In this document: positions 37,087 through 51,217 of the stretch, piece by piece | Position numbering within the stretch: the first letter of the stretch is position 1 | Layout: the number at the start of each line of letters is the position of its first letter | Sequence record: PV660452 | DNA length: 64,000 nucleotides | Reading direction: 5' to 3' (one strand) | From: Escherichia phage LF82-9 | The notes under the pieces: generated by a model | What the model was told of the DNA's origin: nothing | Database searches by the model: none | What the model saw: only the letters and a program-made list of their open reading frames with translations | Translations under genes and position numbers: made by a program

Positions 37087-37545
37087 CTAGATTTTAATCA
37101 CTGCTTTAGAAGCTTTTCCTGGTAGTCGTTTACTGTTAATAATAGCCATTCTGCATTGAAGAGTCTTCATTTTGAATGCTGGATTTTCGCGACAAACTGT
37201 AAGTCCTAACCAAAGATTTCCATCAGTTATTTCTAAACGGCCTGGGCGATATTCGACACCTTCGACAAAATCTTCATCAACATCTGGACGTGCCGGCATT
37301 GATAAAAATTCTGCAACTTCTTTAGCATGATTTTTTACTTTATGAAATAATTCAAAAACGTAATTCTCATCTATTTCTCTCTGGATGGCACGATCTAAGA
37401 GATGTTGAGAATACTTGATATGAAAGCCTGGTAGTCCAAGAGACTTTGCAGCATCTTTTATACCGGCATTTATTTTGCGGAACTCCGTTTCAAAGATTCG
37501 ACGGAGTTTATTACGGCGGATAAAAACTTCCGAATTGATAGTCAT
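37087..37545 (-). CDS. regB: endoribonuclease RegB
   Basis: MTINSEVFIRRNKLRR.. close to T4 RegB; ATG at 37545 with GAGGAG SD. Confidence 0.9.
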   Translation of the reverse strand: MTINSEVFIRRNKLRRIFETEFRKINAGIKDAAKSLGLPGFHIKYSQHLLDRAIQREIDENYVFELFHKVKNHAKEVAEFLSMPARPDVDEDFVEGVEYRPGRLEITDGNLWLGLTVCRENPAFKMKTLQCRMAIINSKRLPGKASKAVIKI

Positions 37546-37564
37546 TTTGATTTCTCCTCTAGTT

Positions 37565-37602
37565 GACAAGTCTATAGTAACACAACTAGAGGAGAAGTAA
37601 AC
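37565..37602 (-). promoter_or_regulatory. early promoter/stem-loop cassette upstream of regB
   Basis: GTTTACT N17 then -10 region with inverted repeat. Confidence 0.4.
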
Positions 37603-37901
37603 TACTCTTTGAAAGGAATTAACTTTTTAACTGCTTTAGATACTTCGTCACGAACCTGATGGAAGTTCTTGAGCTGTTCAAGGCGTTGTTCGTAATACGC
37701 AATCTCATCTTCTTCAAGACAATCGTCAGCGTCTTCTTTCAGATATGCCTTGTACTCATTAAAGAGGGCCCATAGGCGGTTCTCAAAGTCATCAAGGCTT
37801 TGAATTTTCTTGTGCTTCGGAACAAGGCCAAAAGGATTGCTTTCAGTTATGCGTCTAGATGCTTCATAATGAGTTCCAAAGCCTGATAGGATTTGAGCCA
37901 T
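37602..37901 (-). CDS. hypothetical protein (vs region)
   Basis: 99-aa ORF. Confidence 0.45.
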
Positions 37902-38167
37902 TAGTATTTTTCCTCAGGTCGAAATACTGCACGACAGGCCCACATGCTGGCTTCTTTTAGATGTTGCTTAGCATACTTAAGAGCCTGTACTGCATCCATA
38001 TCTTCTTTGGTTTGTTGCTCTGTTTCATTTTCTTTCAAGATATATGCTTCTTCAATCAGAGCATCAAACAACAATCCAAGACGGACTTCTGCATCTTTAA
38101 TAGCGTTCACTTTACCGATTTTATCGTCGGTATGCGGCTTGTAGCCTTTGATGTCTTCAATCGACAT
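37901..38167 (-). CDS. hypothetical protein (vs region), ATG with GAGGAAA SD
   Basis: [20 protein letters not shown]... Confidence 0.4.
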
Positions 38168-38381
38168 AAGGAATTTCCTCATCGGTGACAAGGTCATATT
38201 CGACCAATTGGATAGGCTCGTTAATACCATATCCACGTACAGTGATATCGGTTGTCGGATATTTTCCAGTAATATCACCCATTCTAAATGCTTCAGTGAA
38301 TGATTGCTCACCTGAGCAACTAAACCAGGCGGCAAAACATTTTAAAACATCTTCAGACCCTTCTATAATCAATTTAGCCAT
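38157..38381 (-). CDS. hypothetical protein
   Basis: 74-aa ORF; ATG overlaps stop of GrcA-like gene. Confidence 0.45.
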   Translation of the reverse strand: MAKLIIEGSEDVLKCFAAWFSCSGEQSFTEAFRMGDITGKYPTTDITVRGYGINEPIQLVEYDLVTDEEIPYVD

Positions 38382-38743
38382 TATAGACTCTCAGTAAAGG
38401 TACGAGCGATAACGTCGCGCTGCTGTTCCGGAGTCAGAGAGTTAAAGCGAACTGCATAACCGGATACACGAATGGTCAGCTGAGGATATTTTTCCGGATG
38501 CTTAACTGCATCTTCCAGAGTTTCACGACGCAGAACGTTAACGTTCAGGTGTTGACCACCTTCAATTTTAACTTTAGGTTGATGTTCAATTTCAATTTCA
38601 CGGGCATGTAAACCGTAGAAAATTTCCGGGTCTACAATAGCGTCTTCTTTAAAAGTCTTAGAGACGATAATCCGGGCTTGAGTACCATCTTCAAAATAAA
38701 TAGTGCCTTTATGTACACCTTCAAGAATTTGATATGCTTTCAT
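38381..38743 (-). CDS. autonomous glycyl radical cofactor (GrcA/YfiD-like; T4 Y06I-like)
   Basis: C-terminal half near-identical to E. coli GrcA incl. glycyl-radical motif RVSGYAV. Confidence 0.85.
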
Positions 38744-38749
38744 ATAACC

Positions 38750-39058
38750 TCAATTAGAAAATAAATTTATCCAAGTTTTTTCTTTAATCAAAAATGGGTC
38801 GGAATTAAACGCCATTAAACTTTGAGTGATTAATCCCTTAAACGGCCCATCAATAAATTCCATTTTGAAATGCGGAATACTAGTCATCAACCGTGCATTA
38901 GGAGCAGTACAAAGAACCTGCTGCCCCGCGAAAGGACCTTTAGTCAAACTGTATCGTTTAGGTTTAAAATGGTAAATCTCATAATTTTCTACAAGAGCCC
39001 TTTTATTGCATACTGGGCTGTTATAACAATATTCAAAAACTTCAATAGTGGTCATCAT
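38750..39058 (-). CDS. hypothetical protein
   Basis: 102-aa ORF. Confidence 0.45.
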   Translation of the reverse strand: MMTTIEVFEYCYNSPVCNKRALVENYEIYHFKPKRYSLTKGPFAGQQVLCTAPNARLMTSIPHFKMEFIDGPFKGLITQSLMAFNSDPFLIKEKTWINLFSN

Positions 39059-39595
39059 TGCATTCCAATCACAAAAAATTGAGGACGAGCATTACCGCCG
39101 ATGCAATATTTGCTTTTGCAACAGTGTTGGACTGTTTTAATATGGACATTGTAAATCTTATCCATATCAGGAGCTTTAATAGGCTCGTCAATTATGTACA
39201 GAATACGAGAAAGCGTTAATCCACGGAATTTAGAACCTTCATTGCCAATAAAACTACGGACAGAATCGGTAAATAAACGGAATCGAATATCATCGCTAGA
39301 ATAACGAGAAAATTCTTTTTTTAATGTTGCCAGCAGAAATTTTAGCATAGGCTGAAGTATTAGAAAGAACAATAACTGTTCCACCATCATACAGCCAATT
39401 AGCAGCAAAGTTAGTCACAGCAATTGATTTACCTGATTGTCGGCCGCCGTCTAAACGAAGTGTACAGTACTGCTTGAGTACGTCTTCAAACGGTGGGATA
39501 TAACCGTTCTTACAAATTTCTTCTACTCTAGCATCAGAATGGTGTGTAAAAGCATTCATCAGGGATAGATAAGGTCCAGTTAAAAATGTTCTCAT
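39055..39595 (-). pseudogene. P-loop NTPase gene split by a frameshift at a T7 homopolymer (39316..39322)
   Basis: N-part carries Walker A GGRQSGKS, C-part Walker B LYIIDEP; removing one T fuses both frames (..AGNIKK|EFSRYSSDD..). Confidence 0.55.
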
Positions 39596-39672
39596 TTAGT
39601 TTCTCTTTTAGGTTGGGCCATTCCGTGGCGCATGAATTGTCCATTTCTGTATTTACCCCTCTAAGTAATTAT

Positions 39673-39706
39673 GAATATACTATCACAATTCTAGGAGAAA
39701 GTAAAC
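39673..39706 (-). promoter_or_regulatory. early promoter/stem-loop cassette
   Basis: GTTTACT N17 TAGTAT. Confidence 0.4.
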
Positions 39707-39708
39707 TG

Positions 39709-40011
39709 TTATTTACCTTTAATTACTTTAGCTGCTTCGATAGCCGCTTGCTGAAGGTCATCCATAGACATACCGAATTTAGAAGCAAAGTTATCAATTT
39801 TCTTTTCGACAGCATTCAAAGGCTTGGCCTGTTTACCTTCATTAGCGCCAGGAAGAGCGAGAATACGCTCTTTGTCAATATAAAGGCTTACAAGTTTCTT
39901 ACGGTCTTTATCGGACAAATCATGAAATGAATGGGCCTTTTTATTTATAGCGGCTTCTAATTTACCTGCACTCACTCGCGCTTCAGTAATAAATTCTTGA
40001 TATGTTTTCAT
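39709..40011 (-). CDS. internal protein (IP) with capsid-targeting N-terminus
   Basis: N-terminus MKTYQEFITEA as in T4 IPI/II/III. Confidence 0.7.
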   Translation of the reverse strand: MKTYQEFITEARVSAGKLEAAINKKAHSFHDLSDKDRKKLVSLYIDKERILALPGANEGKQAKPLNAVEKKIDNFASKFGMSMDDLQQAAIEAAKVIKGK

Positions 40012-40075
40012 TTTTTGTTTCCTTGTTTGTTTTGATAGAGTAATTATACCATATTAATACTTAAGCGTAAACAAT

Positions 40076-40336
40076 TTAAGCTTTACCGCCAGAAATAATT
40101 CCGAAGTTGTTAAAATCGTATCCAATATCGTCAACATCTACTTTAGGATTTACTACAACATAAGCAATTTCACTACGTTTTGCATAGGTGTTGATTTCTT
40201 TACCATCGCCACCTAAGAAAGAATACCCATTACGTTTTAATGAGCCAAAGTCTTCGGCATCACCAATGAAAGCTTTAACTTTAAATTTAGGACCTTTGGC
40301 ATCTGCTTCAATGATAAATTCTTGATACATTTTCAT
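40076..40336 (-). CDS. internal protein-like with capsid-targeting N-terminus
   Basis: N-terminus MKMYQEFIIEA. Confidence 0.65.
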   Translation of the reverse strand: MKMYQEFIIEADAKGPKFKVKAFIGDAEDFGSLKRNGYSFLGGDGKEINTYAKRSEIAYVVVNPKVDVDDIGYDFNNFGIISGGKA

Positions 40337-40342
40337 TTTTCC

Positions 40343-40756
40343 TTAGTAAATTGATTTACCATAGTATTTGTACCAAGTAGGACGTTGAGCAATTTTTTCA
40401 TCTAAGCGTGCTTGACTTATCGCAACGGACGCTTCGGACGGGACATAATTATTACGAAATTCGGCAGGGATGTCGGAAATATCCTGGACTGTCGTGTCCT
40501 TGATTTTGAAACCACGTTTCAAGCATTCAGCGATTAGCTCGATTTGTCGTAAACGTAAAAATTCAAGTTTGTCGTAAAAGAATGTTACGTGACCTGTGCC
40601 TAAGATAAATGTTGGAGAGATTTTAAAATCCTTTACACGTTTACCGTTTTGGACATGTTTACGGACTGCACTAAATACGCGTGGTAATTCACGATACTCA
40701 GCCATAAGATGTTGATCGGTCAGTTCAGAAACAAGTGTTAAATTGATACGAGTCAT
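40343..40756 (-). CDS. denV: endonuclease V (pyrimidine dimer glycosylase DenV)
   Basis: [27 protein letters not shown].. near-identical to T4 DenV. Confidence 0.93.
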
Positions 40757-40774
40757 AATTTCCTCCAAGTAGTT

Positions 40775-40813
40775 GATGAATGTATAGTATCAAAACCCTT
40801 GGAGGAAGTAAAC
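40775..40813 (-). promoter_or_regulatory. early promoter/stem-loop cassette upstream of denV
   Basis: GTTTACT followed by hairpin and TA-rich -10. Confidence 0.4.
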
Positions 40814-40814
40814 A

Positions 40815-41096
40815 CTATTTTTCTGAAGCGCCTGAAATATATTTTTCAAGACGTTGTTTCATCAGCGAGCCGTTCTTAGCGATTTCTTCCGGTTTATCGC
40901 ACATACGTAACAAGGCTTCAAGCTTAGCGATATCGCTGGTACGTTCAAATTTGCGAGTATCTATCTTACTAGCAAGTTCAGAAATACGTGCTAATAGACT
41001 TTCGGCTTCAACCAAAGCTGCACCTAGCTTAGTTGCAAATGTGTCAGTAGCTTCGTTAAGAATAGATTCTGATAAAAATTCACTATATGTTTTCAT
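40815..41096 (-). CDS. internal protein-like with capsid-targeting N-terminus
   Basis: [11 protein letters not shown]... Confidence 0.55.
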
Positions 41097-41581
41097 ATAT
41101 ACGCTTTCCAAGTTCCTGTTTTAAATGTTGAGATTACGCGTTTCGCGCGATTAGGTGTCTGACGATACCATTTAGATTGGGCGAGATTTACTGCCGCTTC
41201 ATCCCAACGTTTCTGTTGAAGCATACGAAGAGAATTAGTAAAACCAGCAACGCCTGCTACACCCATTTGGAAGACCATATTGACCAATGCACACCGACGA
41301 ACTGCATCTAAAGAATCATATACCGGTTTAAGTTTAGCATTACCCAAGATTCCGCGAACGGCTTTATCGACGTCTTCATTAAATAGCTTTTCAGCCTCAT
41401 CAAGGGTAATTGTACCGTTGCATTTACGACCGATCATTCTGTCAAGTTCAGCTTTAGCTACGGCTAAAGACGGGTTCTTTGTTACCAAGTGGCCTATGCC
41501 AATCGTCCAAAAGCCTTCAGTGTCTTTGTATAAAGTCAGTCTAAGACCTTCGTCATTACGAAGCATTTCAAATATATTCAT
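41093..41581 (-). CDS. e: lysozyme (gene e)
   Basis: [29 protein letters not shown] near-identical to T4 lysozyme. Confidence 0.97.
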
Positions 41582-41609
41582 AATACCTCCCACGTTTATA
41601 GGAGGTATT
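41582..41609 (-). promoter_or_regulatory. RBS-sequestering hairpin with late-promoter-like TATAAAC in the loop, upstream of gene e
   Basis: Minus strand AATACCTCC-TATAAACGTG-GGAGGTATT then ATG; SD GGAGG paired with ACCTCC. Confidence 0.5.
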
Positions 41610-50269: not shown

Positions 50270-50346
50270 TGGTCAGGGTGAAAGGATTCTAACCTTTAAC
50301 CTGCGGTTTAGAGGACCGCTACTCTATACAATTGAGTTACACCCCG
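50270..50346 (-). tRNA. tRNA-Arg (anticodon UCU)
   Basis: Hand-folded cloverleaf; T-loop TTAGAAT; anticodon loop CCTCTAA (C at position 33 atypical); CCA encoded. Confidence 0.6.
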
Positions 50347-50472
50347 TAATTAGTTCACAGCAATACCTACTCCAACAATCAAGATGTCTTCACACGAAAT
50401 TAAGAGAAGTGTGATCAGTTCAACCCCTATAATCGCGTCAAGTAGATATTAATGTGACAGTTGTCACAAGTT

Positions 50473-50547
50473 TGGCGGACATGCATGGATTCGAACCATG
50501 GACCAATTGATTAACAGTCAACTGCTCTACCACTGAGCTACACATCC
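50473..50547 (-). tRNA. tRNA-Asn (anticodon GUU)
   Basis: Cloverleaf with D-arm GCTCAGTGGTAGAGC, anticodon loop CTGTTAA, T-arm CATGGTTCGAATCCATG, CCA encoded. Confidence 0.7.
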
Positions 50548-50551
50548 AAAT

Positions 50552-50638
50552 TGGTGGGGAGTGGTGGAGTCGAACCACCCGAGTCGCAATGACAATGAAT
50601 TTACAGTCCACACCGCTACCTCTACGGGATAACTCCCC
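50552..50638 (-). tRNA. tRNA-Tyr (anticodon GUA), long variable arm
   Basis: Acceptor GGGGAGT/ACTCCCC, anticodon loop CTGTAAA, T-arm GGTGGTTCGACTCCACC. Confidence 0.6.
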
Positions 50639-50644
50639 TTAATT

Positions 50645-50719
50645 TGGTGGCCCTGGGTGGAATTGAACCACCATCTGGCGATTATGAGTCGCTTGCTTGA
50701 ACCTTCCAGCTACAGGGCC
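50645..50719 (-). tRNA. tRNA with CAU anticodon (Met or lysidine-modified Ile)
   Basis: Acceptor GGCCCTG/CAGGGCC, anticodon loop CTCATAA, T-loop TTCAATT. Confidence 0.6.
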
Positions 50720-50720
50720 T

Positions 50721-50796
50721 TGGTGCTGATTAACGGAATCGAACCGCCGACCTTCTCATTACAAGTGAGTTGCTCTACCTACTGAGCTAAATCAGC
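50721..50796 (-). tRNA. tRNA-Thr (anticodon UGU)
   Basis: Acceptor GCTGATT/AATCAGC, D-arm GCTCAGTAGGTAGAGC, anticodon loop CTTGTAA. Confidence 0.7.
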
Positions 50797-50801
50797 AAAA
50801 C

Positions 50802-50891
50802 TGGCGGAGGCGATAGGATTTGAACCTATGAGTCGCCGGAGCGACTGCCGGTTTTCAAGACCGGTGCATTAAACCACTCTGCCACGCCTCC
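50802..50891 (-). tRNA. tRNA-Ser (anticodon UGA), long variable arm
   Basis: Acceptor GGAGGCG/CGCCTCC, anticodon stem-loop CCGGT-CTTGAAA-ACCGG. Confidence 0.7.
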
Positions 50892-50893
50892 AG

Positions 50894-50967
50894 TCTCCAT
50901 ACAAGGATTTGAACCTTGGACCTCCTGATCCCAAATCAGGCGCTCTACCAAACTGAGCTACACGGAG
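50894..50967 (-). tRNA. tRNA-Pro (anticodon UGG)
   Basis: Acceptor CTCCGTG/TATGGAG, anticodon loop TTTGGGA, T-arm CAAGGTTCAAATCCTTG; CCA not encoded. Confidence 0.7.
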
Positions 50968-50977
50968 TAAATTAAAT

Positions 50978-51051
<74 letters not shown>

Positions 51052-51056
51052 AAATT

Positions 51057-51143
51057 TGGTGCGAGAAGTGGGACTCGAACCCACAAGGAAATCATTCCGC
51101 AGCATTTTAAGTGCTGTGCCTTTACCAATTTGACCATTCTCGC
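51057..51143 (-). tRNA. tRNA-Leu (anticodon UAA), long variable arm
   Basis: Acceptor GCGAGAA, anticodon loop CTTAAAA, T-arm GTGGGTTCGAGTCCCAC, CCA encoded. Confidence 0.75.
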
Positions 51144-51144
51144 G

Positions 51145-51217
51145 CTGGGAATAAAGGACTCGAACCTTTGCATCCTGGAATCAAAATCCAGTGCCTTACC
51201 AACTTGGCTAATTCCCA
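51145..51217 (-). tRNA. tRNA-Gln (anticodon UUG)
   Basis: Acceptor TGGGAAT/ATTCCCA, anticodon loop TTTTGAT, abuts tRNA-Leu with 1-nt spacer as in T4 Gln-Leu dimer. Confidence 0.75.

Follow-up and report, generated by a model that had tools for sequence, protein, structure and literature searches.

In phage T4, runs of 5–6 A are classical hotspots of spontaneous frameshift mutation, accounted for by the Streisinger model and shown genetically in rII and in the lysozyme gene. Overlapping ORFs joined at an A/T homopolymer are also known from genes expressed by transcriptional slippage, such as Thermus dnaX (A9), IS elements with A9 runs, Shigella mxiE and Citrobacter tssM, in which the runs are at least 9 bases long and homologs share the out-of-frame layout (PMC1088944). 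The locus analyzed here is vs.8 of a T4-like (Mosigvirus-type) phage, an already known and conserved accessory gene of unknown role, for which our literature search found no functional study. It shares with the slippage genes the overlap of two ORFs at such a homopolymer, but its run has 7 bases and its out-of-frame layout occurs in 2 of about 640 relatives, as judged from the records sampled. With the T4 frameshifts it shares a one-base gain in a six-A run, the T4-type genome and independent recurrence of the gain; it differs in that the change in vs.8 is known from assembled sequence alone and could be a miscall.

The original prediction for the window, which is the whole 64,000-nt stretch of the Escherichia phage LF82-9 record that was analyzed, was that two minus-strand ORFs, one with a Walker A and the other with a Walker B motif, overlap in different frames and represent a P-loop NTPase gene broken at a run of seven T. 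The coordinates of both ORFs were confirmed. The plus strand reads TTTTTTT at the point where the frame switches, the Walker B ORF lies in the +1 frame with respect to the Walker A ORF, and removing one T gives one ORF of 179 aa, in agreement with the continuous protein of about 180 aa that had been expected. The features of the locus, read from the sequence except for the insertion site, which comes from comparison with relatives, are as follows.

39055..39595, minus strand: interrupted ortholog of T4 vs.8 (541 nt here, 540 nt when intact; 179 aa when repaired)
39296..39595, minus strand: ORF1, the N-terminal fragment with the Walker A motif, 99 aa
39316..39322, minus strand: homopolymer, T7 on the plus strand and A7 in the mRNA; site of the one-base insertion
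39055..39315, minus strand: C-terminal part of vs.8, residues 94–179, in the +1 frame, ending with TGA at 39055–39057
39425..39448, minus strand: Walker A motif GGRQSGKS, residues 50–57
39184..39201, minus strand: Walker B motif LYIIDE, residues 132–137
39677..39706, minus strand: T4 early-promoter-like element (GTTTAC, 14 nt, gtgaTAgtaT)
39055..39058, minus strand: ATGA overlap of the vs.8 stop codon (TGA, 39055–39057) with the vs.7 start codon (ATG, 39056–39058)

Residues 1–93 of ORF1 are authentic and are followed by six out-of-frame residues, RIFSLF, and a TAG stop codon at 39296–39298. The second ORF, as called mechanically, runs from a TTG at 39408 to 39055 on the minus strand (117 aa, with the Walker B motif), and its portion upstream of the run is out-of-frame vs.8 sequence. 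Because an upstream ATG at 39644 is out of frame both in the window and in the related phage LF82-1, we placed the conserved start of the gene at 39595, where the protein begins with MRTFL; some homologs start 13–16 codons earlier (195 aa), and the T4 annotation of vs.8 adds 40 aa at the N-terminus (219 aa). At the position of the run, intact relatives read either A6 (ATT AAA AAA GAA) or AAAAAG. Homopolymers of 7 bases are found at only five places in the 64-kb window (2909, 9180, 39316, 49049 and 56547), all of them T on the plus strand, and there is no A7 run on the plus strand and no G or C run of at least 6 bases.

The repaired 179-aa product is identical over its whole length to XUL00425.1 of LF82-1, the closest relative, in which vs.8 is a single 540-nt CDS. 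It matched PHROG 1488, the T4 vs.8 family, whose function is unknown, over residues 3–179 (E 1.7e-78), and is about 90% identical to the Tequatrovirus orthologs, with which it has in common the Walker A and B motifs and a C-terminal FFVIGMQ. A tblastn search with the repaired protein matched 1009 GenBank phage records, some of them labelled vs.8 (the label is used for RB14, RB51, RB69, ime09 and mar005P1), and in 1007 of these at least 80% of the protein was found in one place; the two ORFs of the window are therefore no chance pair. T4 vs.8 (NP_049732.1) occupies the same slot: in both phages the gene lies upstream of vs.7, vs.6 (GrcA-like), vs.4 (Acb2) and regB, within the early region, with e, denV and the ip genes close by. 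The differences from T4 concern the run, where T4 reads AAAAAG and the window has gone from A6 to a frame-breaking A7, the longer N-terminus annotated in T4, and the upstream neighbor, which is denV in T4 and ipII in the window. Members of the family are single uninterrupted ORFs of about 173–196 aa, and the relatives compared with the window have one intact gene of 179–180 aa rather than two separate conserved genes, the arrangement that would have spoken for two cistrons; the window instead has A7 and two overlapping ORFs. The window copy is thus a disrupted member of the T4 vs.8 family. Searching bacterial and archaeal genome contigs with the locus pattern gave no match, PADLOC returned nothing significant (E 0.041), and the family profile had no significant match among the sequences of solved structures (best E 0.13). 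A collection of 15 billion proteins contains no exact copy of the 99-aa, 117-aa or 111-aa products of the window or of the repaired 179-aa protein.

The proposal that vs.8 encodes a P-loop NTPase was borne out at the level of motifs and of the modelled fold. In an alignment of 20 homologs reaching down to 39% identity, D49-G50-G51-R52-Q53-S54-G55-K56 were invariant, giving the GxxxxGK[ST] signature of the ASCE/RecA-like division. In the Walker B motif L132 and I134 were invariant and Y133 variable, I135-D136 were conserved in at least 90% of the sequences and E137-P138 were invariant; the motif has the hhhhDE form and lies on a predicted strand (131–136) of the same sheet. R113 and R124 were also invariant, and the Lys-Lys pair encoded by the run fell within a variable segment of the protein. 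The model has an alpha/beta RecA-like fold, and these data support the view that the intact product would be a single RecA-like P-loop ATPase domain. No Pfam family scored above its cut-off; AAA_14, Terminase_6N and AAA_30 appeared at E 0.05–0.3. Compared with the ATPase domains of SF2 helicases and with phage large terminases, such as the N-terminal domain of T4 gp17, vs.8 encodes one domain of 179 aa only, with neither a second RecA domain nor a nuclease domain, and its matches lie below the family cut-offs (Terminase_6N 13.5 bits against 22; AAA_14 14.1 bits against 27).

The size of the protein, its single domain and the sub-threshold Terminase_6N score led us to reject the terminase large subunit label, which is carried by the vs.8 homolog in Klebsiella phage records. 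The RegB label was likewise rejected, as no RegB family was among the Pfam hits to vs.8 at E up to 1. In many records, including CAU_ECP01, mogra, HY01 and slur11, vs.8, vs.7 and vs.3 are called "endoribonuclease (RegB)" through VOG-based propagation. The real regB ortholog is probably a separate ORF at 37087–37569 with a presumably T4 RegB-like product, lying where LF82-1, CAU_ECP01, mogra and T4 have a CDS annotated as regB/endoribonuclease. Both labels on vs.8 are propagated misannotations and are unsupported.

Positions 1–45931 of the window are colinear with LF82-1 at 99.80% identity, with 90 substitutions and exactly one gap, the additional A of vs.8 (A7 instead of A6), which is also the single difference between the two copies of the gene. 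This 45,931-nt block contains 44 homopolymers of at least 6 bases, and the other 43 are equal in length in both genomes. Considering that these 43 runs are unchanged and that the extra A is the sole indel, the assembly does not appear to have a general homopolymer-miscall problem. Since the repaired protein is 100% identical to that of LF82-1, the frameshift must be very recent, or artefactual. With genomes only 0.2% apart, a stretch of 541 nt would not be expected to show secondary decay, the absence of which is therefore uninformative either way. Beyond this block, between 45932 and 52784, the window is mosaic or divergent relative to LF82-1 (80–97% identity or no alignment), with flanks that are 99.8% identical. 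Ten tRNA genes are clustered at 50270–51217; in the LF82-1 record, tRNA-Arg and tRNA-Met are the only ones annotated for the corresponding region.

We surveyed run length among relatives using a 61-nt query across the run (blastn, word size 11), which matched 639 GenBank phage records, and examined the best 60 of these together with 60 evenly spaced ones. Among the rows sampled, CAU_ECP01 was the only exact A7 match, ECCR664 was the sole A5, two bases shorter than the window and with the gene unannotated, and about 117 other records had one base fewer than the window and were in frame. The gene was intact in all six IMG/VR loci, and a gapped pattern allowing A5, A6, A7 or AAAAAG recovered 7 metagenome and 5 viral contigs, all 12 in frame. 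T4 and part of the Tequatrovirus group read AAAAAG, showing that the A6 tract itself is not conserved. A metagenome phage from ENA/Logan (SUZU22) carries vs.8 with A5 plus a second shift. In SV76 (OM339528.1, locus 1295–1830) vs.8 is split over three frames, with breaks near residues 32/33 and 114/115, and the region adjacent upstream is called as fragments of 33 and 35 aa, which suggests regional decay or a low-quality record.

In CAU_ECP01, where automatic annotation placed two CDSs at vs.8, the A7 run sits in a different background. Within 2.3 kb on each side of the gene, the window is of the LF82-1 type and CAU_ECP01 of the CCU7 type at 55 of 55 discriminating sites, and no real character unites the two other than the extra A; another flagged column, right where the alignment ends, is an end-of-extraction offset. 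CAU_ECP01 and CCU7 show no other indel in the conserved 20 kb around vs.8. The presence of A7 on different haplotypes points to two or more separate gains of a base at the run, whether in vivo or in sequencing. Shared descent of both A7 alleles was rejected, as it would need a conversion patch of less than 435 nt between the flanking discriminating SNPs; the simpler reading of the haplotypes is that the A7 of CAU_ECP01 would have arisen independently.

The original prediction had offered a pseudogene, a sequencing error or a slippage site as explanations. That a single gene is broken holds, whereas slippage as a means of expression is disfavored. Programmed recoding, in which omission of an A by RNA polymerase or a +1 ribosomal shift at AAA-AAA-AGA would let A7 yield both a truncated and a full-length protein, has some features in its favor: a +1 shift of the P-site tRNA-Lys from AAA onto the overlapping AAA would re-pair perfectly and restore the wild-type IKKEFSRY, and AGA, the next zero-frame codon, is rare in E. 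coli. The frame is restored only if the mRNA lacks one A or the ribosome shifts by +1. However, the phage encodes a tRNA-Arg(UCU) that reads AGA. The out-of-frame layout, moreover, is not conserved as in a programmed frameshift or slippage gene, because LF82-1, at 99.8% identity, and almost every other relative have the gene in frame. A classical −1 shift on A_AAA_AAA was discarded as a variant, since it leads into the third frame, which is also the frame of the A5 variants, and not into that of the vs.8 C-terminus. No stimulatory RNA structure was detected, the 105 nt spanning and following the run folding no better than shuffled sequences (z = −0.33). T4-type phages transcribe with the host RNA polymerase, and the A7 run is below the length of about 8–9 A or more at which that enzyme would be expected to slip. 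In reporter assays with E. coli RNA polymerase, runs shorter than 7 T or 8 A gave no detectable slippage, and none of the poly(A) runs assayed showed deletion-type rescue (PMC6260861); genome statistics give evidence of selection against such runs from about 9 nt (PMC1088944). In E. coli, suppression of frameshifts of a non-programmed kind has been documented at the per-cent level (PMC10861913), and a low-level incidental +1 leak at A7 is plausible, as a by-product and not a design; we consider a programmed event very improbable. The view that ORF1 and ORF2 are independent cistrons making two polypeptides has the automatic annotation of CAU_ECP01 on its side, but relatives have one continuous gene, the upstream part of ORF2 is out-of-frame sequence of that same gene, and Walker A and Walker B must share one domain, so that this view is barely credible. 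Independent initiation of ORF2 was also considered and rejected, because the ATGs in its frame upstream of the run lack Shine–Dalgarno pairing (dG −1.6 to +1.2 kcal/mol). Programmed recoding and two separate genes are effectively excluded.

What the window contains is a non-programmed one-base homopolymer insertion in vs.8, either a real mutation or a miscall, and not a new mechanism. It is quite possible, if short of an even chance, that the phage truly has A6 and an intact vs.8 and that the consensus over-called the run by one base during sequencing or assembly. Such an artefact would fit the fact that the window differs from LF82-1 in vs.8 by one homopolymer base and nothing else, the otherwise clear conservation of the gene, and the sporadic variation in length of this run among unrelated records (CAU_ECP01 has A7, ECCR664 and the SUZU22/Logan phage A5), some of which have further frameshifts suggestive of poor sequence. 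By contrast, a sole indel in 45.9 kb, with the other 43 runs of at least 6 bases unaffected, does not resemble the output of a homopolymer-error-prone platform, and CAU_ECP01 is likewise clean around vs.8. Illumina assemblies seldom have consensus errors at 7-mers, and nanopore sequencing under-calls more often than it over-calls, which also counts against an artefact. Because the assembly shows no other indel, a second clean genome has the same gain and vs.8 is evidently dispensable, we favor over a miscall a genuine recent insertion by replication slippage, which would make this copy of a dispensable accessory gene a very young pseudogene; we hold this to be probable, though only slightly better than even. 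Breakage of vs.8 in viable isolates (at two other sites in SV76, and by A5 in ECCR664 and the ENA/Logan phage) fits a dispensable gene. Against a real mutation, recurrence at the same run is expected of sequencing artefacts as well as of slippage, and ECCR664, the SUZU22 metagenome and SV76 carry extra frameshifts and may be low-quality sequence. In addition, vs.8 is intact in about 98% or more of relatives, pointing to purifying selection and making a fixed knockout uncommon a priori. A further reading, which we regard as improbable, is that the A6 tract acts as a recurrent on/off mutational switch, loss of Vs.8 through A7 or A5 being repeatedly selected on particular hosts, for example as an escape from a defense system that senses Vs.8 or is triggered by it; this would account for two independent A7 gains in clean genomes plus the A5 variants, and the locus lies among counter-defense and accessory genes (Acb2/vs.4, internal proteins).

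If the favored slippage mutation is real, the A6 tract formed by codons Lys92-Lys93 (AAA AAA) would have gained one A by Streisinger-type replication slippage, and translation would leave the authentic frame after residue 93 and stop six codons later. The truncated ORF1 product would keep Walker A and lose Walker B and the conserved arginines. According to the model, it would retain helix 1, strand 1, the P-loop, strand 2 and part of the next helix; since the Walker B strand and R113/R124 would be missing, it should not hydrolyse NTP and should be catalytically dead. The downstream 86 codons have neither a start nor a ribosome-binding site of their own, and both fragments of vs.8 are probably inactive. 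The 4-nt overlap of vs.8 with vs.7, also annotated in LF82-1 and mogra, is an arrangement typical of translational coupling. If vs.8 and vs.7 are indeed coupled, as the overlap suggests, the translation of vs.7 may be reduced by a stop codon lying 240 nt upstream. The promoter-like element at 39677–39706 lies just downstream of the ipII stop codon and upstream of vs.8, and the homologous position in phage SA79RD is annotated as a T4 early promoter; we consider it a putative early promoter here as well.

The early genes of the region are on the minus strand, in an arrangement that agrees with how relatives are annotated at the homologous positions. From their ORF translations we take 41093–41593 to be lysozyme e, 40343–40768 denV, 39709–40011 ipII and 37087–37569 regB. 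When the order at 39709–41111 (minus strand) was compared with that of T4, ipII was directly upstream of vs.8 and denV further up, between two small internal-protein-like genes. Downstream of vs.8, the vs.6 ortholog (38381–38743, minus strand) is a GrcA/YfiD-like autonomous glycyl-radical cofactor (Pfam Gly_radical, E 2.1e-18). The vs.4 ortholog (37901–38167, minus strand) matched Pfam Acb2_Tad1_hairpin (E 4.4e-18), an anti-CBASS/Thoeris nucleotide-sponge fold, indicating that the region downstream of vs.8 carries counter-defense cargo.

For annotation, ORF1 and ORF2 should be recorded as one disrupted vs.8 (a pseudogene or frameshifted CDS) and not as two hypothetical proteins or "endoribonucleases". 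Because length variants recur at the run, its length should be checked whenever a T4-like genome is assembled. Should the insertion be real, the phage is a natural vs.8 knockout, in which case the small ATPase would be dispensable for plaque formation, and together with LF82-type phages it would provide a ready-made isogenic comparison for finding the function of vs.8.
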